NCBI GenBank assembly: GCA_022561355.1
Contig: JADFRJ010000001.1
Coordinates: 1-57,081, forward strand
From: Chloroflexota bacterium
GTDB lineage: Bacteria; Chloroflexota; Dehalococcoidia; DSTF01; RBG-16-68-14
Reading direction: 5' to 3'
DNA length: 57,081 bases
Shown piece by piece: positions 8,672 through 45,041 of this stretch. The notes below the pieces were generated by a model. It was not told where the DNA came from, searched no databases, and saw nothing but the letters and a program-made list of their open reading frames with translations. The translations under genes and the position numbers were made by a program. The first letter of the stretch is position 1; each line of letters begins with the position of its first letter.

Positions 8672-9142
8672 ATGGCCGAGATCTACACGACCGCCTGGTA
8701 CGACAGCATGAAGGAGATCCTCAACGCGAGCGATGAGGTGACGAAGAGCGCGCCGAAAGGCATCTGGAACATTCTGGCGGAAATCCACGGCGACGGCACT
8801 TCCCCATACATCGCCGTTGATGACGTCAAACGCTTCGCGATCGTGCTCGATAACGGAAAATGCGAGAGCTATCAGGAGCTAACAGAGGCGCCGGCGCGGA
8901 AGGATTTCGAGTTCATCCTGGAGATGCCCGCCAGCCTCTTCGAGCGTGTCGTCGCCAACCAGGCCGACCCGCTTGAGGCCGGGCTCAAGGGCGACGTGAA
9001 GATCGTGGGCGACATGCGTGTGCTGATCCAGAACGCCGAACTGGTGAGCATTCTCGCGGACATCTACCAGCGCGAAATCGAGACGGAATGGCCTAACGGC
9101 GCCCCTCCATACGACGCGGCGCCGGCGGGAGGTGCCTCATGA
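8672..9142 (+). CDS. SCP2 sterol/lipid-binding domain protein (soluble)
   Basis: ATG at 8672 after AAGGAG. The SCP2 hallmark segment is DFEFILEMPASLFERVVANQADPLEAGLKGDVKIVGDMRVLIQ. The stop overlaps the A1 start (ATGA at 9139-9142). Confidence 0.7.
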   Translation: MAEIYTTAWYDSMKEILNASDEVTKSAPKGIWNILAEIHGDGTSPYIAVDDVKRFAIVLDNGKCESYQELTEAPARKDFEFILEMPASLFERVVANQADPLEAGLKGDVKIVGDMRVLIQNAELVSILADIYQREIETEWPNGAPPYDAAPAGGAS

Positions 9143-11919
9143 CGCAAGCAGCCCTTAGGCTGAGCGCTCTTGCGGAGAAGAAGGAGAAAGGCAGCCAGAC
9201 CTATGGCTCCTGGCAGGACATCTATCGCGAGAAGTGGACGTGGGATCGCGTCGTCAAAGGGACGTGCAACCGCGCCGACTGCATCGCTGCCTGCTCGCTA
9301 GACCTGTTCGTCAAGGATGGCATCGTCTGGCGGGAAGAGCAGAACGCTATCTTCGAGCAGACCAACGAGACGGTGCCGGACTTTAACCCGAGGGGCTGCC
9401 AGAAGGGCATCATTTACAGCGACCTGATGTACGACGCTTCCCGCATTAAGTACCCGCTGCGACGGGTCGGCGAGCGTGGCTCAGGCAAGTGGGAGCGGAT
9501 CTCCTGGGACGACGCCTTGACGGAGATCGCCGACAAGGTACTGGACGTCTGCAAGGAAGACGGCCCGGAGAGCGTCATCTACGACTTCGGGACCACGAAC
9601 ATCGACTTCGGACCCGGAACGCCTGCCGAGCAGCATCTCATTCGCCTAATCGGCACGACGTCGCTCGATGAGTGGGCCGGCGTTGGGGACCTGCCCATGG
9701 GCGCCATCCAGACGTGGGGGCTATTCACCGCCGATGGCACCTCCGACGATTGGTTCAACGCTGAGACGATTATCGTCTGGCTGGGCAATCCTGTCTACAC
9801 GCGAGTGCCGGACGTCCACTTCATGTTCGAGGCGCGCTACAACGGCGCTCGGGTCGTCACGATCGCGCCCGACTATAACGCCACGGTGGTGCACTCCGAT
9901 CTCTGGTTGAATCCGCGCGTCGGCACGGACGCCGCCCTGGCGCTCGCGATGTGCAACGTGATCGTGGAGGAGGGGCTGCAGAAGAAGCGCTACGTTCAGG
10001 AACAGACCGACCTGCCATTCCTGCTGCGCGAAGATACCGGCCGCTTCCTCCGTCAGTCTGACCTCGCCAAGGACGGCAAGGATGACATCTTCTACATCTG
10101 GGACCTAGCCACCAAGACGCTGCAAGAGGCGCCGGGGACGAATGGACAGCCGGAAGCGTCGATCGATCTGGGCGATCTCGATCCCGCGATGGAAGGCGAG
10201 TACGAGATAGAGCTGCTGGACGGCCGGAACGTGACCGTACGACCCGCCTTCATGGCGCTCAAGAAGCGGTTAGACGAATACACGCCGGAGCGGGCGGCCG
10301 AGATCACGGGAGTCGGCGCCGGCATGATCCGGCGTTTGGCCCGCCAGGTAGCCGAAAGTCCCGCCACGATGATCTTCTGCTCTTGGGGGTCCTGCAAGCA
10401 CTACCACATGGACTTGGTACAGCGATCCATCATTCTGCTGCTCGCGCTCACCGGCAACACCGGCAAGCGTGGCGCCGGCATGCGCATTGGCGCTTGGTGG
10501 AACATGTCCCTCAGCTACGACAAGGCAGGCGTCGGAGCGCTCGCGGCGGCCGGTGGTGACGCGGAGCGGCCTAAGGTCCGCGATGTTGAGAACATCATGA
10601 AGACGCTGATGAAGGCCAACTCTACGATCAGCCCAACGATGCCGTTTCTCTACAAGCACGACAAGGGCTACGCGAAGCTGGTCAACACGCCGGGGTATCA
10701 CGATCCCGATCTGAAGCGCCCCATCAGCGAGTACATGCAGGAGGCGTTCGACAAGGACTGGATGCCCGTCTACCCCAGGGACGGCAAGACGCCGCGCGTC
10801 TTCCTCTACACAGGCATGAACCCGCTGCGGCGCTGGCCGGCGCCCGACGTCATCCGCGAGAACCTGTGGGCAAATTTTGAGCTGATCGTGACGTGGGAGT
10901 TTCGCATGTCCAGCTCCGCCATGTACTCGGACATTATCTTGCCCGCGGCGGGATGGCACGAGAAGTCCGGCATTAAATTCTGCCAGAGCTACGTGCCGTA
11001 CATCTGTGTCGGTGAACAGGCCGTGGAGCCGCTCTACGAGTCGAAAAACGAGTTCGACATCATGGCCAACTTGGCCGAGACGCTCGAACGGCGGGCAAAG
11101 GAGCGGGAGGAGGCGCCGTACAAGGATGCCTTCGGCAACGAGCACGATCCGCGCGAGATCTTCCGGCTCTGGAGTTTTGACGGTGAGTTCGGCGAAGGCG
11201 ATGCTGAGAAGGCGCTGAGCGTCCAGTTCGAACTTTCGGACCCGGTTGGAGATGCCACGTGGGAAGAGGCGGCTCAGAAGGGGGCCGTGCCCGTTAAGTC
11301 GACCGGAGGCTACGGGCCGATCACCGCCATCACGAACGATTTCAAGGAAGGTGAGACGCTCTATCCGTTCGCGTGGTTCGTTGAGGGCAAGGAGTCTTGG
11401 CCAACGCTCACCGGTCGCCAGCAGTTCTACATCGATCATCCATGGTTCCTGGAGGCCGGCGAAGAGCTGCCGACGCACAAGGAGCCTCCTCCCGCCGGCG
11501 GCGACTACCCACTGCGTATGACAGGTGGACATACGCGATGGAGCATCCACTCCATCTGGAGGAGCAACCGCACGCTCCTGCGGCTCCAGCGCGGAGGTCC
11601 CGTGATGTACATCAGCACACAGGACGCGAAGGAGCGCGGCCTGAAAGACCACGATGAGGCGCGGGTCCGGAATGACGTAGGCGAGTTTAAGGTCAGGGTC
11701 AAGCTGGCGCCCAGCGTTCAGCCCGGCCAGGTGGTGATGTATCACGCCTGGGAGCCCTACCAGTTCGAGCAGTGGTCCAGCCAACAGGCTGTGAACCCCT
11801 CGCCGTTGAACCCGCTTCACCTAGTGGGCGACTACGTCCAGCTCCAGTACCGCTTTGCGCTCGCCCAGCCCAGCAATATCTCCCGGGCGATGACCGTAGA
11901 GCTGACGAAAGTGACGTGA
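9139..11919 (+). CDS. type II DMSO-reductase-family Mo-bisPGD catalytic alpha subunit A1 (NarG/EbdA-like, no signal peptide)
   Basis: 926 aa. N-terminal Fe-S (FS0) region GTCNRADCIAACSLDLFVKDGIVWREEQ...NPRGCQKG. NarG-like GDLPMGAIQTWG segment. C-terminal FYIDHPWFLEAGEELPTHKE. GGGAGGTG RBS. The maximal ORF contains no RR motif. Confidence 0.9.
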   Translation: MTQAALRLSALAEKKEKGSQTYGSWQDIYREKWTWDRVVKGTCNRADCIAACSLDLFVKDGIVWREEQNAIFEQTNETVPDFNPRGCQKGIIYSDLMYDASRIKYPLRRVGERGSGKWERISWDDALTEIADKVLDVCKEDGPESVIYDFGTTNIDFGPGTPAEQHLIRLIGTTSLDEWAGVGDLPMGAIQTWGLFTADGTSDDWFNAETIIVWLGNPVYTRVPDVHFMFEARYNGARVVTIAPDYNATVVHSDLWLNPRVGTDAALALAMCNVIVEEGLQKKRYVQEQTDLPFLLREDTGRFLRQSDLAKDGKDDIFYIWDLATKTLQEAPGTNGQPEASIDLGDLDPAMEGEYEIELLDGRNVTVRPAFMALKKRLDEYTPERAAEITGVGAGMIRRLARQVAESPATMIFCSWGSCKHYHMDLVQRSIILLLALTGNTGKRGAGMRIGAWWNMSLSYDKAGVGALAAAGGDAERPKVRDVENIMKTLMKANSTISPTMPFLYKHDKGYAKLVNTPGYHDPDLKRPISEYMQEAFDKDWMPVYPRDGKTPRVFLYTGMNPLRRWPAPDVIRENLWANFELIVTWEFRMSSSAMYSDIILPAAGWHEKSGIKFCQSYVPYICVGEQAVEPLYESKNEFDIMANLAETLERRAKEREEAPYKDAFGNEHDPREIFRLWSFDGEFGEGDAEKALSVQFELSDPVGDATWEEAAQKGAVPVKSTGGYGPITAITNDFKEGETLYPFAWFVEGKESWPTLTGRQQFYIDHPWFLEAGEELPTHKEPPPAGGDYPLRMTGGHTRWSIHSIWRSNRTLLRLQRGGPVMYISTQDAKERGLKDHDEARVRNDVGEFKVRVKLAPSVQPGQVVMYHAWEPYQFEQWSSQQAVNPSPLNPLHLVGDYVQLQYRFALAQPSNISRAMTVELTKVT

Positions 11920-11935: not shown

Positions 11936-12586
11936 ATGCGTGTAGGCCGAGTGGACGCGAAAGACGAGGAGTTGCTGAGCCCTGACTCGAAGGCTTGGCA
12001 AGAAGCCCCGGTCAACGAGGTCGTGCTGTCGCCGGCGCCGCTCGAAATGCAGCCGACTGAGTACATCCGTGTTGCTCGAAACGGCCGTCCATACGGCGTC
12101 CTTTCGAGCATGAAGGTGAGCGCCTTGCACAACGGCGACAGTGTATTCTTCCACTTGATCTGGCAGGACGGCTCTGAAGACGGACCGATCAAAGACATCA
12201 ACCAGTTCGCCGATGCCGCGGCCGTGATGTTCCCGATGGTCGAGGATGCGCCGCTCATTGGCATGGGAATCAAAGGCAAGCCAGTGAACGTATGGCTGTG
12301 GCGCGCTGACTGGGAGCGGCCGAAAAACGTCGCCGCGGAAGGGATGGGGACGACGGTGCGCCGGGACGATCCGGCACTCTCGTCGGCCGCGCGGCACGCC
12401 AATGGACAATGGGACCTGATCGTCGCTCGATCGCTGAACGGAAAGCGCGCGCCTCAGGGAACCGTCGCGCTGGCGCCCGGAACGGTAACGAAGATCGCAT
12501 TCGCCGTCTGGCAGGGCTCCGAGCAGGAGCGCGCCGGCCTGAAGGCGTTCTCTCCCGACTGGCAAGAGCTAGAGCTTGATGCGTAG
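11936..12586 (+). CDS. EbdC-like heme-b gamma subunit of a type II DMSO-reductase enzyme, lacking a signal peptide
   Basis: Shares the MG...PVN(V/I)W.W(R/K)A and FAVW.G...ER.G.K..S motifs with the gamma at 44049-45041. The ATG at 11936 lies 5 nt after GAGGTG; a GTG at 11933 is also possible. There is no hydrophobic N-terminus. Confidence 0.75.
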   Translation: MRVGRVDAKDEELLSPDSKAWQEAPVNEVVLSPAPLEMQPTEYIRVARNGRPYGVLSSMKVSALHNGDSVFFHLIWQDGSEDGPIKDINQFADAAAVMFPMVEDAPLIGMGIKGKPVNVWLWRADWERPKNVAAEGMGTTVRRDDPALSSAARHANGQWDLIVARSLNGKRAPQGTVALAPGTVTKIAFAVWQGSEQERAGLKAFSPDWQELELDA

Positions 12587-12604: not shown

Positions 12605-13657
12605 ATGAGTGAACGACAACTCGCGTTTGTCTTCGACCTCAACAAGTGTTTGGGCTGCCAGACGTGCACCATTTCGTGCAAGACGCTCTGGACGGACCAG
12701 CCGGGCATGGAATACATGTGGTGGAACATCGTCAATACGATGCCCGGCCGGGGCACGCCGCGCGATCGGGACGAGATGGGCGGCGGCTTCGATGCTGAAG
12801 GGCGCGCGCGGGCCGGCGTGCTGCCGAGCGCAAAGGACTTCGGAGAAGCTTGGGATTTCAACTACGAAGAGGTCTTCTACGAAGGGAAGGGCCAATCGGC
12901 ATACCTCCACCCGCGCAACCCAAGCGCGGACGGCAAGGACGAAGCTCCGGAGTGGGGGCCGAACTGGGACGAGGACCAGGGCGCGGGCGAATACCCCAAT
13001 AGCTACTACTTCTACCTGCCCACGATCTGCATGCACTGCACGGAGCCGGCCTGCCTGGCCGCCTGTCCTCGAACGGCGATCTCCAAGCGCGAAGAGGACG
13101 GCATCGTCCTCATCGATGAGGACCGCTGCGATGGCTATCGCTTCTGCATGGAGGCCTGTCCGTACAAGCGCATCTATTTCAACCCGGACCGCTTCATCTC
13201 ACAGAAGTGTGTCATGTGCTTCGCGAGGCTGGAGGAGGGCGTCGCGCCCGCTTGCGTTCGCCAGTGTCCTGGGCGCGTTCGCCACTTCGGCTATCTGGAC
13301 GACGAGGAGAACGACGTCTTCAAGCTCGTTAAGACCTGGAAAGTGGCGATCCCATTGCACCCCGAATTCGGCACAGAGCCCAACGTGTACTACGTGCCGC
13401 CGCTCGCGCCACCACGCTTCGACGAGAACGGGGAGATCGATGAAGAGAATCCTCGCATCCCCATGGAGTACCTGCGCTCGCTCTTCGGCCCGGCGGTGGA
13501 TCAAGCGCTCGCGACGCTCAAGCTGGAGATGGAGAAGACGCGGCAGGGAGGGAAGTCTGAGCTGATGGACATTCTGATCGCCTACAAGTGGCAGAACATG
13601 TTCATTCCGTTCGTGGAGGACCCGGGAGAATTGAGCCGCCCGGCGCCGAAGTCATGA
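12605..13657 (+). CDS. four-cluster Fe-S beta subunit (NarH/EbdB-like) B1
   Basis: Cys clusters CLGCQTCTISCK, CMHCTEPACLAACP, CDGYRFCMEACP and CVMCFARLEEGVAPACVRQCP. 350 aa. Paralog of 24825-25853. Confidence 0.9.
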   Translation: MSERQLAFVFDLNKCLGCQTCTISCKTLWTDQPGMEYMWWNIVNTMPGRGTPRDRDEMGGGFDAEGRARAGVLPSAKDFGEAWDFNYEEVFYEGKGQSAYLHPRNPSADGKDEAPEWGPNWDEDQGAGEYPNSYYFYLPTICMHCTEPACLAACPRTAISKREEDGIVLIDEDRCDGYRFCMEACPYKRIYFNPDRFISQKCVMCFARLEEGVAPACVRQCPGRVRHFGYLDDEENDVFKLVKTWKVAIPLHPEFGTEPNVYYVPPLAPPRFDENGEIDEENPRIPMEYLRSLFGPAVDQALATLKLEMEKTRQGGKSELMDILIAYKWQNMFIPFVEDPGELSRPAPKS

Positions 13658-14334
13658 TGCGTATCGAGGCGCTCGACACGCCGGAGGGAATCGCGGCGGC
13701 TGGCCACAGCCGTCTCTATCGGCTGCTTGCGGACGGGTTCTCCTACCCGGACGGCGAATCGTTCGACGCGCTCAAGACGGGCGAGTTTCGTAACTACGCG
13801 ATGGCAACGTGCGGGGACTTGCCGTACGACCTGGAGCCCGTCTTCGATGGGCTGGTCGCGTCGGGCACGTACACCGACTTCCAGGCTGAGTACCTGCGCA
13901 TCTTTGAGGTGGGTCTTGGTGTGCCCCCGTGTCCGCTCTACAGCGGGCTCTTCCGGGGTGGGCGAAAGGCTGTGATGGAGGAGCTGGCGCGGTTCTATAG
14001 CTATTTCGGGTTGTCGATTGAACACGGCTCCGGAGAACTGCCCGACCACATCACTACTGAGTTGGAGTTCATGCACTTCCTGGCGTTCAAGGAGTTGGCC
14101 GCGCTCGATCAGCAGAAGGACCCGGAGCCGTACCGGCGTGCCCAGGCGGACTTCCTGGAGCGCCAGCTCACGAACTGGCTGCCCGATCTGGAGAAGCGCT
14201 TGCAAGGCCTGGAACCGCCGCCGTTCTACGCGGCGTTGGCTTGGCTGACGAACACCGCGGCGCGCGCTCACCTCGCCGCGCTCGATGGATCGCTCGATCG
14301 TAACGTCTCGATTTCATTGGAGCAGGTGCGATGA
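13654..14334 (+). CDS. NarJ/TorD-family delta chaperone D1
   Basis: The ATG at 13654 overlaps the beta stop (ATGA). The segments AEYLRIFEVG...PLYSG and LPDHITTELEFMHFLAFKE are shared with the delta at 43289-44071 (PDHISIELEFMHLVTCKE). Confidence 0.8.
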   Translation: MMRIEALDTPEGIAAAGHSRLYRLLADGFSYPDGESFDALKTGEFRNYAMATCGDLPYDLEPVFDGLVASGTYTDFQAEYLRIFEVGLGVPPCPLYSGLFRGGRKAVMEELARFYSYFGLSIEHGSGELPDHITTELEFMHFLAFKELAALDQQKDPEPYRRAQADFLERQLTNWLPDLEKRLQGLEPPPFYAALAWLTNTAARAHLAALDGSLDRNVSISLEQVR

Positions 14335-15472: not shown

Positions 15473-18325
15473 ATGGCCCGCAAAAGCGCATTTGAGAAGG
15501 CAGAAGGCACCGCCGAACGCTATCGGAATCGCTGGCGCTGGGATTCGGTGACCTGGGGCAGCCACTGCGTCGACTGCTATCCCAGCAACTGCCCGCACCG
15601 GGTGTTCGTGCGCGACGGCAAGGTGGTGCGCGAAGAGCAGGCCGGGACATTCCCCGTCATCGAGCAGGGCGTGCCGGATATGAACCCGGCCGGCTGCCAG
15701 AAAGGCGCGATGTGGAGCCAGATGCTCGACGGCGAAGACCGCGTGATCTACCCGATGAAGCGGGTAGGGGAGCGAGGCTCCGGCAAATGGGAGCGCGTAT
15801 CTTGGGATGATGCGCTGACAGACATCGCCGACAAGACGATCGACGCTATCCAGGAGTATGGCTCGGAGTCCCTGGTACGCATCGGCGAGCCGGCCGAAGG
15901 CGGCACCCAGGTGCTGGTCTGCGCGAGCATGCTGGTGAACGTGCTCGGCGGGATCACCACCGACGTGCAGGCCGAGATCAACGACTTCAGCCCCGGCCTC
16001 TACATTACGTATGGCAAGTTCGACCCGGCCGCCAGCGTTGACGACTGGTTCCACTCGGAGCTGATACTCATCTGGCACTGCAACCCGGTCTACACGAACA
16101 TCCCCTGGTACCACTACGTCGCGGAGGCTCGCTACAACGGCGGTGAAGTGGTGCTCTTCGCGCCGGACTACAGCCCGTCCGCGCTCCATACGGACGTGTT
16201 CGCGTCCGTGCGTCCGGGGACCGACGCGGCGCTCGCGCTTGGCATGTGCCAGATCTTAATCGCAGAGGGGCTCTATCACGACGACTTCGTGAAGGAGCAG
16301 ACAGACCTGCCCTTGCTGGTGCGAACGGATAACCGCCACTTCCTGCGCGCGAGCGATGTCGATGGCGGCCGGGACGATCAGTTCTACTGGTACGACAAGG
16401 TGACGAAGAGCGTCGTCGAGGCGCCTCGCGGGACGCTCGCATTAGGCGACGTGAATCCGGCGCTCTCCGGCGAATTTGAGGCGACGCTCGCGGATGGCTC
16501 GAAGGTTGGCGTGACGCCGGTCTTCGCGCTGCTCCGCGAAACGCTCGACCGCGACTACACGCCGGAGAAGGCTTCGGAGATCTGCGGCGTGCATCCGGAC
16601 GTGATGCGCCGCGTGGCGCGCACGGCAGCTCGCAAGCGCACACGGCTGCTCATGGGCTGGAACTCCGGCAAGTACTACCACGGCGACCTCATGGAACGGA
16701 CGATGGCGCTCTTCCTGGGGCTGACCGGCAACTGGGGCCGCAAGGGTACCGGCGCCCGGTCGTGGGCCGTGGGCTGGTACGAGGGGATGTTCGCGCCGCT
16801 GGCGAAGGCGAAGCCGGGCCGCCAGGCCGCTCGAGACATGCAGAAGATGCAGAAGCAGTTCCTGGCTGCCATGAAGGCGGAAGACCCCACCATGACCGAC
16901 GAGATCGCTGTGGTGGAGCAGGAGTATCGCAACGCGCGCATGGGCGGCATGGTGCCGGCGGTGTTCTTCTGGTACTACCACTGCGGCTTCCGGGAGCGAT
17001 GGAACAAGGCGGAGTGGAACGACCCCACCATGAAGCGCACCTTCGACGAGTACATTGAGGAGGGCATCGAAAAGGGCTGGTGGGAGGGCTTCCGCACGCC
17101 GGACGAAAAGACACCCCCACAGGTGATCTTCGAGATCGGCAGCAACGTCCTGCGACGCACGCGAGGCGGCCAAGAACTGTTGTTGAAGGAGTTGTGGCCT
17201 AACACGAAGCTGATCGTCACGTGGGACTGGCGGATCAGCACCACCGGACTCTGCTCGGACTACATCCTGCCGGCGGCGCAACACTACGAGAAGACGAACT
17301 TCTGCTACCAGACGCCACACATCATGAACCTGACGTTCTCGGATAAGGCCGTCGAGCCGCCGGGCGAGGCGAAGTCGGAATGGCAGATCACGCTTGCCTT
17401 GGCGAAGAAGATCGAGGAGCGCGCGAAGGCGCGCGGCTTCACGGAATACGAGACTCGCGGCATCACGCGCCGTCTCGATAATCTCTACAACGATCTGAGC
17501 AAGGACGGCGCGTACGCGGAAGATGAGCGTTTGATGGACGAGATGGTGCGGGATAGCGCCACGTTCGGCGTGCTGCCCAAAGGGACGAACCTCGCGACGA
17601 TGCGAGAGAAGGGATTCGTGCGCTTCACGGACTGGGGCGTTAGTTCGATGACGCTCGCCCAGGCTTCTGAGCTGAAGCCCGACGAGGCCCACGCCCCGTT
17701 CCGTAACCACACGGAGAAGAAGGAGCCGTTCCCGACACTGACGCGCCGCGCGCAGTTCTACATCGACCACGACTGGTTCCTGGAGGCCGGCGAAGAGCTG
17801 CCCGTGCACAAGGAGACACCGATGCAGGGTGGCGACTATCCACTCCTGCTCACGTCGGGCCACCCGAGGCACAGCATCCATTCGATGAACATGACGAGCA
17901 AGCTGATCCTGCAGACGCACCGTGGCCACCCTTCGATGTTCATCAGTCCAGAGGACGCCAAGGCGCGCAAGATCAAGAACAACGAAACAGTGCGGATGTA
18001 CAACGACGTGTCGTCGATCATCATCGACACGAAGGTCTCGGCGCTGGTGAGGCCGGGCCAGGTGATCGTCTATAACGGCTGGGAGCCGTACCAGTTCAAG
18101 GACTGGAAGGGCAGCGAGAACGTGGAGCCGGGCATGGTCAAATGGCTTCACCTGGCTGGAGGCTACGGCCATCTCCGGTATCGCAGTCTCCACTGGCAGC
18201 CCGTGCCGATCGACAGGGCGATCCATGTGGACGTAGAGAAAGTGAAGCCGAAACGCATTGCCAAGGCGAAGGCAGGCGCCAAGCGATCTGGGAGTAGGAA
18301 GCGGAAGACGCTTGCGCGTGCATAA
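15473..18325 (+). CDS. type II DMSO-reductase-family alpha subunit A2 (no signal peptide, basic C-terminal tail)
   Basis: ATG at 15473 after GGAGGCACATC; the track ORF's upstream extension overlaps the MobB-FmdE gene. Motifs: GSHCVDCYPSNCPHRVFVRDGKVVREEQ, NPAGCQKG, NDFSPGLYITYGKF and KWLHLAGGYGHLRYR. The tail is KVKPKRIAKAKAGAKRSGSRKRKTLARA. Confidence 0.9.
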   Translation: MARKSAFEKAEGTAERYRNRWRWDSVTWGSHCVDCYPSNCPHRVFVRDGKVVREEQAGTFPVIEQGVPDMNPAGCQKGAMWSQMLDGEDRVIYPMKRVGERGSGKWERVSWDDALTDIADKTIDAIQEYGSESLVRIGEPAEGGTQVLVCASMLVNVLGGITTDVQAEINDFSPGLYITYGKFDPAASVDDWFHSELILIWHCNPVYTNIPWYHYVAEARYNGGEVVLFAPDYSPSALHTDVFASVRPGTDAALALGMCQILIAEGLYHDDFVKEQTDLPLLVRTDNRHFLRASDVDGGRDDQFYWYDKVTKSVVEAPRGTLALGDVNPALSGEFEATLADGSKVGVTPVFALLRETLDRDYTPEKASEICGVHPDVMRRVARTAARKRTRLLMGWNSGKYYHGDLMERTMALFLGLTGNWGRKGTGARSWAVGWYEGMFAPLAKAKPGRQAARDMQKMQKQFLAAMKAEDPTMTDEIAVVEQEYRNARMGGMVPAVFFWYYHCGFRERWNKAEWNDPTMKRTFDEYIEEGIEKGWWEGFRTPDEKTPPQVIFEIGSNVLRRTRGGQELLLKELWPNTKLIVTWDWRISTTGLCSDYILPAAQHYEKTNFCYQTPHIMNLTFSDKAVEPPGEAKSEWQITLALAKKIEERAKARGFTEYETRGITRRLDNLYNDLSKDGAYAEDERLMDEMVRDSATFGVLPKGTNLATMREKGFVRFTDWGVSSMTLAQASELKPDEAHAPFRNHTEKKEPFPTLTRRAQFYIDHDWFLEAGEELPVHKETPMQGGDYPLLLTSGHPRHSIHSMNMTSKLILQTHRGHPSMFISPEDAKARKIKNNETVRMYNDVSSIIIDTKVSALVRPGQVIVYNGWEPYQFKDWKGSENVEPGMVKWLHLAGGYGHLRYRSLHWQPVPIDRAIHVDVEKVKPKRIAKAKAGAKRSGSRKRKTLARA

Positions 18326-18462
18326 GGAAGAGATGGAGAAGAAAGAACGCGGCGAGCGATCGCAGGTGGTCGGTTCGCGGACTGTACGGAACGGGGACGA
18401 GCCGCTGGGTTGTTGGATGGGTGACCTGGCCACCATTCACTGGCGCTAGCTGCCCGGATCGA

Positions 18463-18476
18463 AGCGGACGTCCGCT
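18463..18476. promoter_or_regulatory. perfect 14-nt palindrome AGCGGACGTCCGCT, 32 nt upstream of the A3 start
   Basis: Read directly from the sequence. It lies in the 182-nt A2-A3 spacer, next to GGCGCTAGC and CAGCGCTAGAGGAGG segments that resemble Box2. Confidence 0.25.
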
Positions 18477-38202: not shown

Positions 38203-38508
38203 ATGGGAAGTGCTGGGGGCCCTAAGCTCACGAAGGATTTCGAGCCTGACGACCCTTTGGAGTTGGTTGGCGTTGGGCTGGCGGAGCCGCCCGATGACGC
38301 GGCATTGGACGAGATGGCGTGCTCGATCGTCGAAGAGTACATGCGCATGGGCTGGACGGGCGAAAACATCATGCGCCTCTTTCGTAACCCGGCGTTTCAC
38401 ATGACGCACAACATCCTGCGTCTCAAAGGCGAGGTATACGTGCAGGGCCTCGTCGCGTCCGTGGATCGGATGCGCAGCGAACTTCAGCGGTCGGGAGATG
38501 GATCATGA
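38203..38508 (+). CDS. small hypothetical protein (101 aa), translationally coupled to A6
   Basis: GAGGGAG RBS. Balanced amino-acid composition with an acidic N-terminal half and a helical-looking C-terminal half. The stop overlaps the A6 ATG (ATGA at 38505-38508). I recognise no family. Confidence 0.5.
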   Translation: MGSAGGPKLTKDFEPDDPLELVGVGLAEPPDDAALDEMACSIVEEYMRMGWTGENIMRLFRNPAFHMTHNILRLKGEVYVQGLVASVDRMRSELQRSGDGS

Positions 38509-38594
38509 AGCCACTAAGCCGTCGTACGTTTCTCAAGCTAGCTGGCGGCGCAACCGCGGCAGGCGTCGCGTTGGGCAGCCCTGCCGTTCTTGCG
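38505..38594 (+). other. Tat signal peptide of A6
   Basis: S-R-R-T-F-L-K, then an Ala/Gly-rich h-region, then a possible VLA cleavage context. Confidence 0.8.
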
Positions 38595-41500
38595 CTGCGC
38601 CGCTTCCAGCCGGTTGCTATCGGCAACCCGCTGGAAGACTACCCGAGCCGCGATTGGGAGACGGTCTATCGCGATCAGTATGGCTACGACGGCAGCTTTA
38701 CGTGGGTCTGCTCTCCCAACGACACGCACGCGTGCCGGCTGCGCGCGTTCACGCGAAACGGCATCGTGACGCGGATTGAGCAGAATTACGATAGCGGCAA
38801 CATCACGGACATCGAGGGTAACAAGGCAACCGCCCACTGGAACCCGCGAGGCTGCGAGAAAGGGCTCTCGATGCACCGGCGCGTCTACGGGCCCTACCGC
38901 CTGCAGCACCCAATGATCCGTCAGGGATGGAAGCAGTGGGCGGACGATGGCTTCCCTGAGCTGACACCGGAGAACCGCGACAAGTATCTGTTCACCGACC
39001 GTGGTCACGATACATTCGCCCGCGTCTCTTGGGATGAGGCGCACGACTATGCCGCCCGTGGCATGATCGCGGTCGCGGAAGCGTACAGCGGCGATGAGGG
39101 CGCGCGCCGGCTGGAGGCCGAAGGCTACCAGCCGGAGATGATCGAGGCGATGCACGGCGCCGGAACACGCACGATCAAACTGCGCGGCGGCATGGGTTTG
39201 CTCGGCGTCATCGGCAAGTACGGCATGTACCGCTTTTCCAATACGCTGGCCTTCCTCGACAGCCACGTACGCGGCATCGATGTCGACGATGCGCTGGGCG
39301 GTCGCAGCTGGTCGAACTACACCTGGCACGGCGACCAGGCACCGGGACAGCCGTTTGTCCACGGCCTGCAGACGTCCGACTGCGACTTCAACGACATGAT
39401 CTACACGAAGCTGCACATCCATGCGGGCGTCAACATGATCGAGAACAAGATGCCCGATACGCACTTCTTCTACAACACAATGGAACGCGGCGGGAAGATC
39501 GTGATCATCTCGCCCGAGTACAGCCCCCAGGCCACCAAAGCGGACTACTGGCTCTCCGTCCGGCCGGGCATCTCTGACACCGCCATCTTTTTAGGTGTGT
39601 CGAAGATCATCATGGACAACGGCTGGCATGATGAGGCCTACGTCAAACAGTTCTCCGACTTCCCTCTGCTCGTGCGAACGGACAACCTGAAGCGTCTGCG
39701 CGCGAGCGAAGTCTTCCCCAACTACCAGTCGAGCCTGTCTCAGGACGGTCCCAGCTTCGCGCTCCAGGGCCTGAAGCAGGAGCAGCATGAGCAGCTCGGC
39801 GACTTCGTCGTGTTCGACAACAACAGCAACAGCCTCAAGGCGCTCACTCGCGACGACCTTGGCGATCGCATGGTGCAGAAGGGCATCGACCCGACGCTGG
39901 AGTATCAGGAGACGATCACGCTCGTGGACGGCAGCGAGGTCGAGGTGATGACGCTGTGGGAGATGTACAAGATCAACCTGCGCGACTACGACCTAGACAC
40001 CGTGCATGAGATCTGCGGCGCCCCGAAGGACCTCATCGAGCAGCTTGCCAAGGACATCGCGACGATCAAGCCCGTCGCGATTCACGTCGGCGAAGGCATC
40101 CAGCACTGGTTCCACGCCACGCTGCACAACCGGGCGACCTACCTGCCGTTGATCCTGACCGGGAACATTGGAATGAAGGGCGCGGGGTGCCACCAGTGGG
40201 CCGGGAACTACAAGGCTGCGCTCTTCCAGGCTTCTCCGTGGACAGGCCCGGGCTTCAAGGGCTGGATCGCCGAGGACCCGCTCCGGCCGAACCTGGACCC
40301 GAACGCGTCGGGCTCGGACATTCTGGTGAAGAACCACGCCAAGGACGAGGAGCCGGCCTACTGGAACCACGGCGACCAGGCGCTGATCGTGGACACACCC
40401 TCGCAGGGACGCAAGAACTTCACCGGTGAAACTCACATGCCGACGCCCACGAAGGTGATGTGGTTCAACAACGTGAACATCATCAACAACGCCAAGTGGG
40501 CCTACCACATGATCAAGAACGTCAACCCGAAGGTCGACATGATCGTCAACCAGGACATCGAGATGACGGCTACGGGCGAGTACTCGGACATCTTGCTTCC
40601 AGCCAACTCCTGGATGGAGTTCCAGCAGTTGGAAGTAACGGCGTCCTGTTCGAATCCCTTCCTCCAGATCTGGGGCAAGGGAGGCATCAAGCCGCTCTAC
40701 GACTCGGAAGACGACATCACGATTATCGCCAACATGGCGGCCAAGCTCGCCGACCTGCTAGACGACTCACGGATCAGGGACTACTGGAAGTTTGCCCTAG
40801 AGGGGCGGCCGGAAGTCTACCTGCAGCGCTTGTTGGACGCTTCCACCACTACCAAGGGATACAAGGTCGACGACATCATGGCCGGCAAGTATGGGGAGCC
40901 GGGCGCGGCCCTGATGCTCTTCCGTACGTACCCGCGCGTTCCCTTCTACGAGCAGATGGTAGATAACGTTCCCTTCTATACGGACACGGGGAGACTCAAC
41001 TCATACTGCGATATCCCGGAAGCAATCGAGTACGGCGAGAACTTCATCGTCCACCGGGAAGGACCGGAGGCGACGCCGTATCTGCCAAACGTCATCGTCA
41101 GCACGAACCCATACATCCGGCCGGAGAACTACGGCATCACTCCGGAGATGCTCCAGAGCGAGGTGCTCGACGGCGAGTTGCGGACGATCGCGAACAACAA
41201 GATGTCCTGGGAAGAGGTGAAGAACACGAAGAATACGCTCTGGGAGAAGGGCTTCAGCTTCTACTGTCTGACGCCCAAGACCCGCCACCGCGTGCACTCG
41301 CAGTGGGGCAACGTCGACTGGCACCAGATATGGGACTCCAACTTCACCGACCCATATCGGCGGGACACACGAATGCCCGGCGTCGGCGAGCATCAGGTCC
41401 ACATCAACCCAGAAGCGGCCAAGGACCTCGGCATCGAGGACGGCGACTACGTGTACGTCGACGCGAACCCGGCCGACCGGCCCTACGTGGGCTGGTCGGA

Positions 41501-41981
41501 GGACGATCCGTTCTACAAGGTTGCGCGCCTGATGCTGCGCGCCCGGTACAACCCGTCGTATCCGTACAACGTCATCATGATGAAACACGCGACCAGCATG
41601 GCGACGGAACGAACGGTGCGCGCGCATGAGACGCGGCCGGACGGCCGGGCCCTGTCCGAGGACACCGGCTATCAGGCGAACCTGCGCTATGGCTCCCAGC
41701 AGAGCCTCACGCGCGACTGGGCGATGCCCATGCACCAGACGGACACGCTGTTCCACAAGGCGAAGGTGGCCACGGCCTTTATCTTCGGCGGCGAGGCCGA
41801 CAACCACGCGATCAATACCGTGCCGAAGGAAACGCTGGTGCGGGTGACGAAAGCAGAGCCGGGAGGACTCGGGGGCAGGGGCGTCTGGACACCCGGCACA
41901 AGCGGCAAGACCCCGGCGGCAGAGGATGCTGACATGAACAAGTACCTGGCCGGCGGCTTCATTCAGACGCGTGAAAGCTAG
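38505..41981 (+). CDS. Tat-exported NxrA/NarG-like type II DMSO-reductase-family alpha subunit A6 (periplasmic NXR type)
   Basis: 1158 aa. Tat signal MKPLSRRTFLKLAGGATAAGVALGSPAVLA. FS0 region WVCSPNDTHACRLRAFTRNGIV...NPRGCEKG. Mo-ligand region WHGDQAPGQPFVHGLQTSD. It is followed by an NxrB-like beta gene. Confidence 0.88.
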   Translation: MKPLSRRTFLKLAGGATAAGVALGSPAVLALRRFQPVAIGNPLEDYPSRDWETVYRDQYGYDGSFTWVCSPNDTHACRLRAFTRNGIVTRIEQNYDSGNITDIEGNKATAHWNPRGCEKGLSMHRRVYGPYRLQHPMIRQGWKQWADDGFPELTPENRDKYLFTDRGHDTFARVSWDEAHDYAARGMIAVAEAYSGDEGARRLEAEGYQPEMIEAMHGAGTRTIKLRGGMGLLGVIGKYGMYRFSNTLAFLDSHVRGIDVDDALGGRSWSNYTWHGDQAPGQPFVHGLQTSDCDFNDMIYTKLHIHAGVNMIENKMPDTHFFYNTMERGGKIVIISPEYSPQATKADYWLSVRPGISDTAIFLGVSKIIMDNGWHDEAYVKQFSDFPLLVRTDNLKRLRASEVFPNYQSSLSQDGPSFALQGLKQEQHEQLGDFVVFDNNSNSLKALTRDDLGDRMVQKGIDPTLEYQETITLVDGSEVEVMTLWEMYKINLRDYDLDTVHEICGAPKDLIEQLAKDIATIKPVAIHVGEGIQHWFHATLHNRATYLPLILTGNIGMKGAGCHQWAGNYKAALFQASPWTGPGFKGWIAEDPLRPNLDPNASGSDILVKNHAKDEEPAYWNHGDQALIVDTPSQGRKNFTGETHMPTPTKVMWFNNVNIINNAKWAYHMIKNVNPKVDMIVNQDIEMTATGEYSDILLPANSWMEFQQLEVTASCSNPFLQIWGKGGIKPLYDSEDDITIIANMAAKLADLLDDSRIRDYWKFALEGRPEVYLQRLLDASTTTKGYKVDDIMAGKYGEPGAALMLFRTYPRVPFYEQMVDNVPFYTDTGRLNSYCDIPEAIEYGENFIVHREGPEATPYLPNVIVSTNPYIRPENYGITPEMLQSEVLDGELRTIANNKMSWEEVKNTKNTLWEKGFSFYCLTPKTRHRVHSQWGNVDWHQIWDSNFTDPYRRDTRMPGVGEHQVHINPEAAKDLGIEDGDYVYVDANPADRPYVGWSEDDPFYKVARLMLRARYNPSYPYNVIMMKHATSMATERTVRAHETRPDGRALSEDTGYQANLRYGSQQSLTRDWAMPMHQTDTLFHKAKVATAFIFGGEADNHAINTVPKETLVRVTKAEPGGLGGRGVWTPGTSGKTPAAEDADMNKYLAGGFIQTRES

Positions 41982-42007: not shown

Positions 42008-43273
42008 ATGGCTAAGGTTCACAACTGGCAGCTAGGGCGGGAGATGGACTACCGCTTCCCGGAGGTCCATCCAGACCGGCAGTTCGTCGCCGTGTTCAAC
42101 ATCAACAGGTGTATCGCGTGTCAGACCTGCACGTTCGCTTGCAAGTCAACGTGGACGTACAGCCGCGGCCAGGAGTTGATGTGGTGGAACAACGTCGAGA
42201 CCAAGCCGTATGGGGGCTACCCGCACCACTGGGACATCAAGCTCCTCCAGCTGCTGAACGACGCCAATCCAGGCGGCCAGACATGGGACGCATCTACGCA
42301 GAGCGACGACGCGCCGTACGGCGAGTTCAAGGGCATGACGATCTTCGAGGCCGGCGCCGCGGAGGGGAAAGACAGCGCTATCGGCTACCTCCCGACCGAG
42401 GAGGACTGGACGTCTCCGAACTTCTATGAAGACACGGCGAAAGGCAACCCGGGGGTGCCGAACGAGTACCATCCGGAGGGCGCGCAGCTTCCGGAGCACA
42501 ACACGTGGTTCTTCTACCTGCAGCGCATCTGCAACCACTGCACGTACCCCGGTTGCGTATCGGCCTGCCCCCGCAACGCCATCTACAAGCGGCCGGAGGA
42601 TGGCATCGTCCTCATCGATCAGGAGCGCTGCCGCGGCTACCAGAAGTGCGTGGAGCAGTGCCCCTACAAGAAGTCGATGTACCGGCCGAACCAGCAGGTC
42701 AGCGAGAAGTGCATCGGCTGCTATCCGCGAGTTGAGGGAAGCGACCCAATTACGGACGGTGTGCCGATGGAGACGCGTTGTGTGGCGACGTGCGTCGGAA
42801 AGATCCGTCTACAGGGCCTCGTGGACATCCAGGACGGCGAGTGGGTAGAAGCGCCAACCAATCCGCTCTACTACCTGGTGCGGAAGGAGCAGGTGGCGCT
42901 GCCGCTCTACCCCCAGTTTGGCACGGAGCCGAACGTCTACTACATCCCGCCCCGATGGGTTCCGCGTGAGTACCTGCGCCAACTGTTCGGCCCCGGTGTC
43001 GATCAGGCCATCGACCGATACACCAATCCGTCTCGCGAGCTGCAGGCGGTGCTCCAGCTCTTCCGCTCCACGCAGAAGATCATCTTCCGCTACGAGATTG
43101 AGGAGGGCGAGGAGATCATGGATACCGAAGTCAACGGCCGCCGCGTGCAGATCTTCAACGATACGATCATCGGCTTCGACGGCAATGACCAGGAGGCGGT
43201 GCGAATCTCCGTGGAAGAGCCGTTTCACATTCGAAACGGCGAATTCGCGGGACAGTTCCAGAACTCCATCTAG
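42008..43273 (+). CDS. NxrB/NarH-like four-cluster Fe-S beta subunit B6
   Basis: The N-terminus MAKVHNWQLGREMDY...FVAVFNINRCIACQTCTFACKSTWT..GQELMWWNNVETKPYGGYP matches my recollection of Nitrospira/Kuenenia NxrB. Further clusters: CNHCTYPGCVSACP, CRGYQKCVEQCP and CIGCYPRVEG...CVATCVGKIR. Confidence 0.88.
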   Translation: MAKVHNWQLGREMDYRFPEVHPDRQFVAVFNINRCIACQTCTFACKSTWTYSRGQELMWWNNVETKPYGGYPHHWDIKLLQLLNDANPGGQTWDASTQSDDAPYGEFKGMTIFEAGAAEGKDSAIGYLPTEEDWTSPNFYEDTAKGNPGVPNEYHPEGAQLPEHNTWFFYLQRICNHCTYPGCVSACPRNAIYKRPEDGIVLIDQERCRGYQKCVEQCPYKKSMYRPNQQVSEKCIGCYPRVEGSDPITDGVPMETRCVATCVGKIRLQGLVDIQDGEWVEAPTNPLYYLVRKEQVALPLYPQFGTEPNVYYIPPRWVPREYLRQLFGPGVDQAIDRYTNPSRELQAVLQLFRSTQKIIFRYEIEEGEEIMDTEVNGRRVQIFNDTIIGFDGNDQEAVRISVEEPFHIRNGEFAGQFQNSI

Positions 43274-43288: not shown

Positions 43289-44071
43289 ATGACAACGCAG
43301 ACGATCGAATTGAGAAAGGAACAGGTGGCCACGTACCACCTGGCCCGTAGCGCGGCCTATCGGCTGTTGTCCCAGGCGACGGTCTATCCCACCGGTGAGG
43401 TCGTCGCCGCGCTGAGCGACGAGGACCTGTCGCAGGCGCAGGCGGCCGCCGCGGTCCTGGGAGCCCCTTTCTCCGAGCGCCTGGGCGTGTTTGAGCGAGA
43501 GCTGCACGCAGCGTCTCCGGAGCAGCTTCAGGACCAGCACCGGCGCATTTTCTCGCACATCCTATCGCTGGACTGTCCGCCCTGCGAGACCGTGTACACC
43601 GCGAGCGAGATCTTCCAAGAGACGGACCACCTGAGCGATATCGCTGGCTTCTTCCGGGCGTTCGGCATGGAGCTGGCCGAGAAGGAGCGTCCGGATCATA
43701 TCAGCATCGAGCTTGAGTTCATGCACCTCGTCACCTGCAAAGAAGCGGTCGCGCAGCTGCGTCATGGACCCGAGAAGGCGCGATTGTGCCGCGTGGTGCA
43801 GCGAAAGTTCATGGAGGACCACCTGGGACGCTGGGGGCAGCAGTTCGCCCGGCAGCTCGAACGCCAGGCGCCCGCAGGCTACTTCCGAGCGGTCGCCAGG
43901 CTCCTCGATGCGTTCCTTGCCGCTGAGGTTAGCTATCTGCGCGCGAAACCCGAGGTCTTGCGAGTGAATTCTGACTGGCGGACGAAGCTTGACGAGGAAG
44001 GCTGTTCGACTACAGATGGGTGCCCACTCGTGGAGTCAGGAGAAGACAATGGAAACCTTATCCAGCTCTAA
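43289..44071 (+). CDS. NarJ/TorD-family delta chaperone D6
   Basis: 260 aa. Contains HRRIFSH...CPPCETVY and RPDHISIELEFMHLVTCKE, parallel to D1. GGAGGA RBS. Confidence 0.8.
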   Translation: MTTQTIELRKEQVATYHLARSAAYRLLSQATVYPTGEVVAALSDEDLSQAQAAAAVLGAPFSERLGVFERELHAASPEQLQDQHRRIFSHILSLDCPPCETVYTASEIFQETDHLSDIAGFFRAFGMELAEKERPDHISIELEFMHLVTCKEAVAQLRHGPEKARLCRVVQRKFMEDHLGRWGQQFARQLERQAPAGYFRAVARLLDAFLAAEVSYLRAKPEVLRVNSDWRTKLDEEGCSTTDGCPLVESGEDNGNLIQL

Positions 44072-45041
44072 GAGGCTCACCGTTATCATCATGGCGTTCG
44101 TGTTCGTCGGCGCCGCGGCGCTGACCCTGTTCGACCTACGACTGGCCTCTTCCCAGACCGTCACGCTTGTGGCCAAGCGCAGCGAAAACGCGATACCACT
44201 CGACGACCCGTCAGCCGACGTCTGGGATAAAGGAGCGCCAATACAGGTGCCCTTGAGCGGCCAGAATACCGTGCCGCCGCGAGGCGGAGGCGAAGGGACC
44301 GTCACCGCGAGGGCGCTTCATTACGATGGGAAGCTCTATATCCGCATGGAGTGGAGCGACGCCACCAAGGACGATTCGACGAGCATGCAGAACGAATTCA
44401 CCGACGCAGCGGCCGTCCAGTTTCCGGTCGAACACGGCGAGAGCGTACCCGCGTTCTGCATGGGCAACCCGGACGCTCCCGTAAATATTTGGCAATGGAA
44501 GGCCGCCTGGCAGACTGGAACGGACGCCTCCGTCCTCGATGTGCAGGAGGCGTACCCGAACATCGCCGTGGACTTCTATCCGTTTGAGGACGAACCGGAG
44601 TTCTACCCGGCGGCTGCCTCCGGAAACATCGTTGTGCGGGCGGACCGCACGAGCGCGGCAGACAATCTGTTAGCCGGGAGCTTTGGCACGCTTACGGCGG
44701 CCGAAGACCAGATGGTCGCCGGAATGGGGGCCTGGGATGACGGCAAGTGGAGAGTCGTGTTCTCCCGCGACCTACAGGTAGGTGCGGAGTACGCGCAGTT
44801 CGCCGAAGGGGACAGCACGAACGTGGCGTTCGCTGTCTGGAACGGAGCGAACGCCGAGCGGGACGGGATGAAGTCCGTCTCGCAGTTTCTCACGCTAGAG
44901 GTCTCGCCGGAGATCGCAACAGGTGGTGGAGGCCTGTCAGGCGGGACAATTGGGCTGTTCGTAGTAGTAGGTTTGGTCGTAGTGGCTGGGCTGGCCACTG
45001 TAGGTAGCTACCTTCTGTACACGCGACGCCAGACGGCCTGA
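44049..45041 (+). CDS. EbdC/NxrC-like heme-b gamma subunit with an N-terminal signal peptide and a C-terminal TM anchor
   Basis: The start was set at the ATG at 44049, giving a 23-nt overlap with the delta gene. Signal: METLSSSKRLTVIIMAFVFVGAAALTL. Motifs: FCMGNPDAPVNIWQWKAAW and FAVWNGANAERDGMKSVS. The C-terminal helix is IGLFVVVGLVVVAGLATVGSYLLY followed by TRRQ. Confidence 0.75.
   Translation: METLSSSKRLTVIIMAFVFVGAAALTLFDLRLASSQTVTLVAKRSENAIPLDDPSADVWDKGAPIQVPLSGQNTVPPRGGGEGTVTARALHYDGKLYIRMEWSDATKDDSTSMQNEFTDAAAVQFPVEHGESVPAFCMGNPDAPVNIWQWKAAWQTGTDASVLDVQEAYPNIAVDFYPFEDEPEFYPAAASGNIVVRADRTSAADNLLAGSFGTLTAAEDQMVAGMGAWDDGKWRVVFSRDLQVGAEYAQFAEGDSTNVAFAVWNGANAERDGMKSVSQFLTLEVSPEIATGGGGLSGGTIGLFVVVGLVVVAGLATVGSYLLYTRRQTA

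Follow-up and report, generated by a model that had tools for sequence, protein, structure and literature searches.

Molybdoenzyme genes of the window

The stretch of DNA under study (hereafter the window) is one contig of 57,081 bp from a Dehalococcoidia (Chloroflexota) metagenome-assembled genome (MAG), to which all window results refer. The system in question is a cluster of genes for type II dimethyl sulfoxide (DMSO) reductase-family molybdoenzymes, in which catalytic (alpha) subunits outnumber the iron-sulfur (beta), haem b (gamma) and chaperone (delta) subunits. The GC content is about 63% along the whole length, and the closest relatives of the alphas in protein searches belong to Dehalococcoidia or Chloroflexota MAGs, followed by Binatia and 'Deltaproteobacteria'/Myxococcota MAGs. 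A preliminary description had counted six alpha, three beta, two gamma and two delta genes, which Pfam and NCBIfam profiles bear out. These genes, and the remnant of a further one, are:

9139..11919, + strand: A1, divergent alpha resembling those of ethylbenzene dehydrogenase (EBDH; EbdA) and perchlorate reductase (PcrA), without a twin-arginine translocation (Tat) signal; Cys-Asn replaces the FS0 His
11936..12586, + strand: G1, haem b gamma (Pfam EB_dh; TIGR03477 174.8 bits, cut-off 169.85), aligned end to end with 2ivf_C
12605..13657, + strand: B1, four-cluster Fe-S beta (Pfam Fer4_11; TIGR03478 516 bits, cut-off 480.7)
13654..14334, + strand: D1, NarJ/EbdD-type assembly chaperone of 226 aa (Pfam Nitrate_red_del), its start taken from orthologues
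15473..18325, + strand: A2, orphan alpha without Tat signal; its orthologue in Chloroflexi bacterium RBG_16_68_14 (locus L079) has its own beta next to it
18288..18476, + strand: beta fossil, 3' end of a deleted beta gene, detected by tblastn with the A2-adjacent beta of L079; the B4 C-terminus matches it too
18508..21507, + strand: A3, the sole EBDH-type alpha with a Tat signal (VTRRGFLKG; possible lipobox LTQLGC; Pfam TAT_signal)
24825..25853, - strand: B4, Fe-S beta after A4 (Fer4_11; TIGR03478 469.8 bits, cut-off 480.7), 56% identical to B1
25910..28696, - strand: A4, alpha without Tat signal, part of an alpha-beta module that is widely conserved
35231..38020, + strand: A5, orphan alpha without Tat signal
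38505..41981, + strand: A6, NxrA of the periplasmic Kuenenia/Nitrospira type of nitrite oxidoreductase (NXR), with Pfam TAT_signal
42008..43273, + strand: B6, NxrB (7b04_A, 599.7 bits)
43289..44071, + strand: D6, NarJ-type chaperone (Nitrate_red_del)
44049..45041, + strand: G6, NxrC-like haem subunit with an N-terminal signal/transmembrane (TM) segment and a C-terminal TM anchor (EB_dh; 7b04_C, 103 bits)

Pfam Molybdopterin is found in A1-A6 and Molydop_binding additionally in A1-A5. Within the window, Fer4_11 is confined to the three beta genes listed, EB_dh to the two gamma genes and the NarJ-type Nitrate_red_del to the two delta genes, and tblastn of every beta, gamma and delta protein against the window returned zero additional intact copies. 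This inventory agrees with the arrangement first reported, with a beta gene after A1 (via gamma), A4 and A6 only and with gamma and delta genes beside A1 and A6 only. Likewise, A2, A3 and A5 had rightly been called orphan alphas, no intact adjoining beta, gamma or delta gene being found by tblastn of the window; the beta fossil beside A2 had been overlooked. On the basis of ribosome-binding sites and orthologue lengths, the start codons of A2 (to 15473, 950 aa, with a GGAGG ribosome-binding site) and A3 (to 18508, 999 aa) were revised, both lengths agreeing with those of the orthologues, and so were those of G1, D1, G6 and of the FAD2 and SCP2 genes upstream of A1 (see below).

The resemblance of A6 to NXR, recognised earlier, is borne out by a full-length match to 7b04_B (1785 bits). 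A6, B6 and G6 give full-length matches to NxrA, NxrB and NxrC of Kuenenia stuttgartiensis (PDB 7B04) and are accompanied by their own chaperone, D6; judged by these similarities, A6-B6-D6-G6 is a complete 1:1:1:1 NXR operon of the periplasmic type, a neighbour of the hydroxylase island and presumably unrelated to it in function. The treatment of the six alphas as one set has consequently been given up: the NXR operon is an independent unit, identities to the hydroxylase subunits are low (A6 to A1-A5, 23-27%; B6 to B1/B4, 36-39%), and the close relative OFTM331 (GCA_029262675.1) has no NXR operon at the corresponding place, where unrelated VIT1, guanylate cyclase and cupredoxin genes lie beyond A5. 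The likeness to Kuenenia and Nitrospira NXR comprises the Tat signal on alpha and the full-length NxrA/B/C similarity (A6-B6-G6 only), whereas the host is here a Chloroflexota MAG and G6 bears a TM anchor at its C-terminus, the gene after it encoding a polytopic membrane protein. The latter, of 344 aa and with no family match, lies in the NXR region (38505-46087) and could be a membrane partner. NXR genes of sediment Chloroflexi have been in the literature since 2013 (PMC3971608). With the A6 set counted separately, the puzzle is one of five alphas (A1-A5) of the EBDH/S25DH type (S25DH, steroid C25 dehydrogenase) against two beta (B1, B4), one gamma (G1) and one delta (D1).

Five old paralogs of the ethylbenzene dehydrogenase type

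A2-A5 are 47-62% identical to one another and A1 is 38-43% identical to them, in accordance with the earlier view of A1 as a divergent relative. Among the segments that had been read as common to A2-A5, (S/T)H..DCYP..C..RV(F/Y) is present in all four and NP.GCQKG in all four as well as in A1; WFLEAGEELP.HKE, found in A1, A2, A4 and A5, is missing from A3, and KWLHLAGGYGHL.Y, found in A2, A3 and A5, is missing from A4. The Asp-containing segment noticed in all six alphas is indeed conserved, the Asp aligned with EbdA Asp223 and with the Mo ligand of NarG (Asp222) being kept in A1-A6. As to the ligands of the FS0 cluster, A2-A5 keep H-x3-C-x4-C plus NPxGC, A1 has Cys-Asn in the place of the His and A6 has a variant of its own; EbdA His192 is not conserved in the aligned alphas.

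The best solved-structure match of A4 is EbdA (PDB 2IVF; 724 bits, end to end), and A1 matches PcrA (588 bits) and EbdA (579 bits) about equally. Acetylene hydratase (2e7z) is a distant match of both, and structure searches of the PDB with A1 and A4 gave no S25DH structure. Over the N-terminal third, A1-A5 are 41-47% identical to EbdA. Against NCBIfam TIGR03479 (cut-off 984.75 bits), A3 scores above the threshold (1005 bits), A1 (957), A2 (944), A5 (911) and A4 (867) slightly under it, and A6 reaches 345; model positions 1 to ~13-42 are without match in A1, A2, A4 and A5. The EbdA equivalog model NF042978 (cut-off 2000 bits) is matched by A1-A5 at 629-868 bits, below its threshold. The sole hint toward S25dA is that two relatives (P0094 and P0302) are labelled 'steroid C-25 hydroxylase alpha subunit' by JGI on the basis of KEGG.

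In an unbootstrapped neighbour-joining tree of the N-terminal 345 residues, for which the EbdA and PcrA fragments were rebuilt from PDB alignments, EbdA is sister to a clade made of the A3, A2/A5 and A4 groups, and the A1 group lies deeper, between EbdA and PcrA. Since each window paralog clusters with its own orthologues of other genomes, the five paralogs are old and not recent duplicates.

A lost beta subunit

In RBG_16_68_14 the gene order is A1-gamma-beta-delta-FmdE-MobA-A2-beta-A3-X3 (X3 being a permease gene, see below), and the beta next to A2, 63% identical to B4 and 58% to B1, occupies exactly the site of the fossil in the window. The fossil comprises 63 residues, with an internal stop and 39.7% identity to amino acids 280-342 of that beta (E 6.7e-6 over the whole window), and it spans, over about 190 nt, the end of A2 and the 183-nt A2-A3 spacer. 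These alignments indicate that a dedicated A2-adjacent beta was deleted in the window lineage, and that the deletion predates the split from OFTM331, because OFTM331 is without that beta too. In view of the fossil and of the purifying selection on A2 (see below), the dedicated beta appears to have been lost while A2 stayed functional. The regions following A5 and B4 were also searched by tblastn, and no other fossil of a beta, gamma or delta gene was found there.

Conservation, selection and related loci

OFTM331 keeps the order FAD-SCP2-A1-G1-B1-D1-MobB/FmdE-A2-A3-X3-CN hydrolase-alpha/beta hydrolase-(B4-A4-AhbD-AhbC)-luciferase-like monooxygenase-A5 at 83-92% amino-acid identity, and with it the set of 5 alpha, 2 beta, 1 gamma and 1 delta (identity of about 88-91% for this set), along about 45 kb of a 230-kb contig. 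Relative to the OFTM331 orthologues, dN/dS is 0.13 for A2, 0.085 for A3, 0.089 for A5, 0.10 for A4 and 0.069 for B4 (dS 0.5-0.84); the orphans A2, A3 and A5 (dS 0.64-0.84) are under selection equal to that on the partnered A4 and B4. A1-A5 are ancient paralogs, each with its own orthologues and each under purifying selection (dN/dS 0.09-0.13).

Far from being peculiar to the window, the surplus of alphas is found throughout the family, in MAGs of Dehalococcoidia, Binatia and Myxococcota. The 37 loci around A4-type alphas of GTDB species representatives with full 10-kb flanks (22 kb each; one MAG can supply up to six or seven separate loci) contain in total 62 alpha, 33 beta, 6 gamma and 4 delta genes. 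In 22 of the 37 a beta comes after the focal A4-type alpha; 12 have no beta within the 22 kb and 32 have no gamma. Some 'delta'/Myxococcota MAGs carry alpha-beta-alpha and gamma-beta-alpha-alpha-delta operons, and OFTM284 (L080) has two gamma-beta-delta sets ahead of two alphas. An operon of gamma, beta, alpha and a second, different alpha recurs in four loci of Myxococcota/'Deltaproteobacteria' MAGs (L025, L036, L050 and L065), with a delta downstream in L036 and L050. With A3 and A1 the tandem alphas of these operons share 42-50% identity; the A1-like one of L025 has a Tat motif, and the operons adjoin A4-B4(-A4') modules.

Export signals and predicted location

The Tat signal of A3 aligns with the signal of EbdA. 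The maximal open reading frames (ORFs) of A1, A4 and A5 begin about 50 residues downstream of the EbdA Tat signal, and the maximal-ORF extension of A2, which runs into the gene before it, does not resemble a Tat signal. Thus, A1, A2, A4 and A5 are predicted to be cytoplasmic and A3 to be exported. The strict Tat motif occurs in 4 of about 100 related alphas (from 78 loci), and at least one more (L013) fits a looser motif. A periplasmic location is given for all of the characterised EbdA, CmdA and S25dA (PMC10100899), and a Tat signal for S25DH alpha1 (PMC6016249); among A1-A5, A3 alone has the Tat signal expected for a periplasmic member of the EBDH/CmdA/S25DH subfamily.

The lack of a signal peptide on G1 was considered as a sign of a cytoplasmic complex and rejected as such, for EbdC, with which G1 aligns over the 214-aa chain, has no signal peptide either. 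EbdC being without its own signal, export of gamma by hitchhiking is plausible for A3, and G1, to go by its sequence, could accompany a cytoplasmic alpha or, as a hitchhiker, the exported A3. G1 also keeps the haem ligands Met108 and Lys201 of EbdC in the alignment with 2ivf_C. The signal of A3 ends in LTQLGC(S/R)GG (window 18508-18670); the Cys is kept in the L079 and L081 orthologues, and L080 and L013 have LTRLGF. This possible lipobox may anchor the exported enzyme on a monoderm cell.

Neighbouring genes and likely substrates

The island contains the following further genes:

4945..6531, + strand: FAD1, flavoprotein of the COG1233/CrtI-CrtO family, 528 aa (Pfam DAO/Amino_oxidase; CrtO 244 bits, cut-off 1000; crtI_fam)
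6519..7055, + strand: small SCP2-like protein between FAD1 and FAD2, 178 aa (Pfam SCP2 E 4e-4, 21.1 bits, cut-off 21.3), gene call also in L082 and L083
7048..8661, + strand: FAD2, second COG1233-family flavoprotein, 537 aa, its start taken from the 537-aa orthologue in L081/L082
8672..9142, + strand: SCP2 lipid-carrier, 156 aa (Pfam SCP2 27.3 bits, cut-off 21.3), also upstream of A1 in L081, L082 and L083
14331..15455, + strand: MobB-FmdE fusion with zinc ribbon (Pfam MobB, FmdE, zf-dskA_traR; NCBIfam mobB), for maturation of the molybdenum bis(pyranopterin guanine dinucleotide) cofactor (Mo-bisPGD)
21507..22934, + strand: X3, 12-TM NCS1/CytX-like permease (CytX 105.7 bits, cut-off 309.85; ncs1)
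22931..23929, + strand: nitrilase-superfamily (CN_hydrolase) enzyme with a 332-aa orthologue, its start overlapping the X3 stop
23936..24769, + strand: alpha/beta-hydrolase
28792..29958, - strand: AhbD-like radical SAM/SPASM protein, haem b synthase family (TIGR04053 481.9 bits, cut-off 395; AhbD 375 bits, cut-off 500)
29955..31211, - strand: AhbC/NirJ1-like radical SAM/SPASM protein (TIGR04546 573.3 bits, cut-off 650)

The reading frames of FAD1, the small SCP2-like gene and FAD2 overlap, and the stop of the SCP2 gene overlaps the start of A1. FAD1 and FAD2 are 34% identical and have the architecture of CtmAB, namely two adjacent divergent COG1233 subunits of about 60 kDa, the likeness drawn here being one of architecture. 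CtmAB, the limonene dehydrogenase, is a tandem COG1233 flavoprotein pair whose subunits are 27% identical (PMC4109377), and the steroid delta24-desaturase of Sterolibacterium is a tandem CtmAB-like flavoprotein that works with the Mo enzyme S26DH2 (PMC11061730). The gene context as a whole points to hydrophobic isoprenoid, sterol or alkyl substrates.

X3, which had come into consideration as a lost membrane subunit, was rejected as such on account of its NCS1/CytX-like permease profile. It is translationally coupled to A3, and in L079, L080, L081 and L013 too the A3-type alpha is regularly followed by such a permease (435-481 aa), the stop and start codons overlapping. The group of A3, X3 and the hydrolases suggests a separate route, in which hydroxylation outside the cell is followed by uptake. 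The combination of permease and CN-hydrolase (21507-24769) recalls hydantoin/pyrimidine utilisation clusters, which would be an odd partner for an EBDH-type enzyme.

The radical SAM pair, AhbC/AhbD-like by profile and rejected as peptide or Mo maturases, lies directly upstream of A4-B4; the pair is kept in OFTM331, and one such gene in RBG_16_68_14. It suggests that siroheme-dependent haem b synthesis is encoded within the hydroxylase island. Between the AhbC-like gene and A5, at 31231-34009 (- strand), lies an inserted block of genes for a Rieske ferredoxin (31231-31542), a cytochrome P450 and a monooxygenase of the luciferase-like type, absent from this place in OFTM331; the three are oxygen-dependent hydroxylase types, side by side with oxygen-independent ones. 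Next to A5, another luciferase-like gene (34164-35088, - strand) is split over two frames (amino acids 1-167 and 172-316) relative to the intact 316-aa OFTM331 orthologue, which would make it a frameshifted pseudogene unless the assembly is in error.

Proposed sharing of partner subunits

It is proposed, with about an even chance of being right, that A1-A5 are Mo-bisPGD enzymes of the EBDH/S25DH subfamily which hydroxylate independently of oxygen and share few beta, gamma and delta subunits. Subunit sharing is the most economical reading of the gene content, from which we infer the pairings, the substrates and the electron acceptor. Each of A1-A5 would most likely use Mo, held by the conserved Asp, and FS0 for the water-based hydroxylation of a C-H bond in a different hydrophobic substrate, probably an isoprenoid, steroid-side-chain or alkyl compound, and the two electrons would pass from FS0 to the Fe-S beta and on to the haem b gamma. 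An FS0 cluster in the alphas implies a downstream Fe-S partner; since only A1 has a gamma-beta-delta set and only A4 a beta of its own, A2, A3 and A5 would most likely borrow B1 or B4, and the haem exit, G1, and the chaperone for cofactor insertion, D1, would be used in common. The cofactors may come from the same island, Mo-bisPGD by way of MobB-FmdE and haem b by way of the AhbC/AhbD-like proteins. A1, A2, A4 and A5 would act in the cytoplasm, where the SCP2-like carriers and CtmAB-like flavoproteins could deliver and pre-activate lipids, and A3 would be exported via Tat, with beta and gamma as hitchhikers as in EBDH, coupled to the NCS1-type permease and the two hydrolases.

The idea of a plug-in system, in which several alphas use one set of partners, is retained for A1-A5 in the light of the beta fossil next to a selected A2, of the 5:2:1:1 set of OFTM331 and of the alpha surplus in relatives. 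It no longer includes the A6 set, its alphas are 38-62% identical as against 72-82% in Sterolibacterium, and the arrangement is family-wide. Several points weigh against the proposal. Sharing is read from the genes, and further beta, gamma or delta genes could lie outside this contig, OFTM284 having two gamma-beta-delta sets. Given the identities within A1-A5 (38-62%) and between B1 and B4 (56%), cross-compatibility is an assumption. Most A4-B4 modules elsewhere are without gamma or delta within 10 kb, so that gamma is maybe no universal part of these enzymes. A single shared pool would need to serve both cytoplasmic and exported enzymes, and the window shows no evident acceptor in the cytoplasm for electrons from a high-potential haem b.

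Alternatively, one-to-one partners may be encoded elsewhere in the genome, the alpha surplus then being an artefact of looking at a single MAG contig. That the beta, gamma and delta content varies among relatives, with a beta after A2 in L079 and two gamma-beta-delta sets in L080, and that S. denitrificans encodes alpha1 apart from beta3-gamma3 (PMC6016249) would fit such a dispersal. However, the former A2-adjacent beta was deleted and not relocated, its 3' end being still in place, OFTM331 shows the same deficit over some 45 kb of its 230-kb contig, and the ratio of 62 alpha to 33 beta to 6 gamma in the 37 loci would demand distant encoding in many genomes; this explanation is thus considered unlikely, if still a serious one. 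The orphans might also function without EbdB/EbdC-type partners, either as stand-alone enzymes with another carrier, such as the Rieske ferredoxin encoded in the island, or in a non-redox hydration. Acetylene hydratase, of the same superfamily and a distant match, is a non-redox enzyme, and the loci without beta (12 of 37) or gamma (32 of 37) within 22 kb are compatible with partnerless alphas. Yet the W.WDK segment at the N-terminus of type II enzymes and all four FS0 ligands are retained by every orphan, just as in EbdA, PcrA and NarG, which are obligate alpha-beta enzymes, and OFTM331 has the orphans but not the Rieske-P450 pair. No stand-alone type II alpha is known to us, and partnerless function seems distinctly improbable.

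The other two explanations carry far less weight. Decay of the orphans into functionless leftovers of old operons would be in line with the fossil state of the A2-adjacent beta and with the frameshifted luciferase-like gene next to A5, but is refuted by the selection data (orphan dN/dS 0.085-0.13, the same as for A4 and B4) and hardly credible for ORFs that are intact and of full length, with all cofactor ligands, and whose orthologues are kept in several species. Very improbable, too, is that all six alphas, NXR included, make up one system in which the exported A3 would use B6 and G6. A3 and A6 are the sole Tat-bearing alphas, G6 is the sole gamma with its own signal and membrane anchor, and in one Binatia locus (L069) an NXR-like set lies near an A4-B4 pair; against this stand the low identities of A6 and B6 to the hydroxylase subunits, the full-length Kuenenia NxrA/B/C matches in a 1:1:1:1 operon, the absence of that operon beside A5 in OFTM331, and the A3-type alphas of L013 and L080, which adjoin EBDH-type and not NXR-type beta/delta genes.

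Comparison with known systems

The shared-partner design is already known from the cholesterol-degrading Sterolibacterium, and what is new here is the lineage, the predicted location, the paralog depth and the gamma-less alpha-beta module. In S. denitrificans eight alphas stand beside a smaller number of beta/gamma genes and two chaperones, and alpha1, alpha2 and alpha3 are all active with beta3-gamma3 (PMC6016249, PMC6153880); the alphas sharing partners are 72-82% identical and the beta/gamma pairs 99% (PMC6016249). The window genes are likened to S25DH1-4/S26DH by description, as type II hydroxylases with many alphas, fewer beta/gamma and one or two chaperones. In the S25DH expression platform 'gamma3beta3' was cloned as a single fragment (PMC6016249), suggesting a gamma-then-beta order that resembles A1-G1-B1 of the window; similarly, a tandem CtmAB-like flavoprotein cooperates with the Mo enzyme there and a comparable pair lies upstream of A1 here. 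As the preliminary description held, lineage and topology are different: Sterolibacterium is a Betaproteobacterium with periplasmic, Tat-signal enzymes (PMC6016249, PMC10100899), whereas the host is here a Chloroflexota and four of the five alphas A1-A5 are signal-less. Moreover, the alphas presumed to share partners are more diverged here (38-62% identical), and the gamma-less alpha-beta module is frequent.

EbdABC(D) of Aromatoleum aromaticum (2IVF) is the best solved-structure match of A2-A5. The likeness extends to the Asp223 Mo ligand, the His/Cys ligands of FS0 (A2-A5), Met108 and Lys201 of gamma and the Tat signal of A3, whereas EBDH is periplasmic, with the order alpha-beta-gamma-delta in 1:1:1:1, and the window alphas are 41-47% identical to EbdA in the N-terminal third. 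At the gene level, the alpha-beta-gamma composition with an EbdB-type beta and an EbdC-type gamma is found for A1 (G1, B1) and, in part, for A4 (B4). As regards PcrAB (4YDD), to whose alpha A1 is as near as to EbdA (588 vs 579 bits), PcrA is a periplasmic oxyanion reductase, whereas A1 has no Tat signal, an EbdC-type gamma and a lipid-handling context.

Chloroflexota MAGs have been reported to carry several 'ahyA' genes, on average 1.44 copies per genome (2026 survey, PMC13170169). AhyA of Desulfococcus oleovorans Hxd3 is a putative alkane C2-methylene hydroxylase, its function being itself hypothetical, and 'ahyA' is probably the same family as A1-A5, the two being set together by label. The 'ahyA' surveys did not treat stoichiometry, signal peptides or gene context.

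Significance

Oxygen-independent hydroxylation of unactivated C-H bonds is a rare chemistry, with uses such as the synthesis of 25-hydroxyvitamin D3 with S25DH. To our knowledge, all characterised enzymes of the S25DH/EBDH hydroxylase type come from a few Proteobacteria and all are periplasmic. A wider reading, put forward tentatively and with more doubt than confidence, is that A1, A2, A4 and A5 are part of a large radiation of Tat-less cytoplasmic EBDH/S25DH-type hydroxylases in Dehalococcoidia, Binatia and Myxococcota, in which sub-stoichiometric and promiscuous beta, gamma and delta subunits would serve alphas diverged to 38-62% identity, acting on SCP2-delivered lipids. If cytoplasmic enzymes with shared partners do exist in Chloroflexota, Binatia and Myxococcota, the pool of catalysts would be much larger, and their bioenergetics would differ, with substrate uptake required and another electron sink. 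They would amount to an intracellular toolbox for the oxygen-independent C-H hydroxylation of isoprenoid, sterol and alkyl compounds in uncultured subsurface bacteria, and would help to explain how recalcitrant lipids are attacked by the Chloroflexota that abound in the subsurface and the deep sea. The most useful new handles are the Tat-less topology and the beta fossil, which may be regarded as a natural experiment indicating that a dedicated beta can vanish while its alpha persists.

Other features of the window

Towards the start of the window, at 2908-4422 (- strand), a GMC oxidoreductase gene scores 386.2 bits with MftG (mycofactocin dehydrogenase; cut-off 387.45) and adjoins an acyl-CoA dehydrogenase gene; other mycofactocin genes were not seen in the window. 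A search of the window with Rfam for a molybdenum cofactor (Moco) riboswitch found none, the only match being tRNA-like (44.4 bits). Judged by eye, this element of 96 nt (54359-54454, - strand), for which ARAGORN makes no call, has a mismatched G-A pair in the acceptor stem, its extra arm is long and its anticodon, ACC, is unusual.

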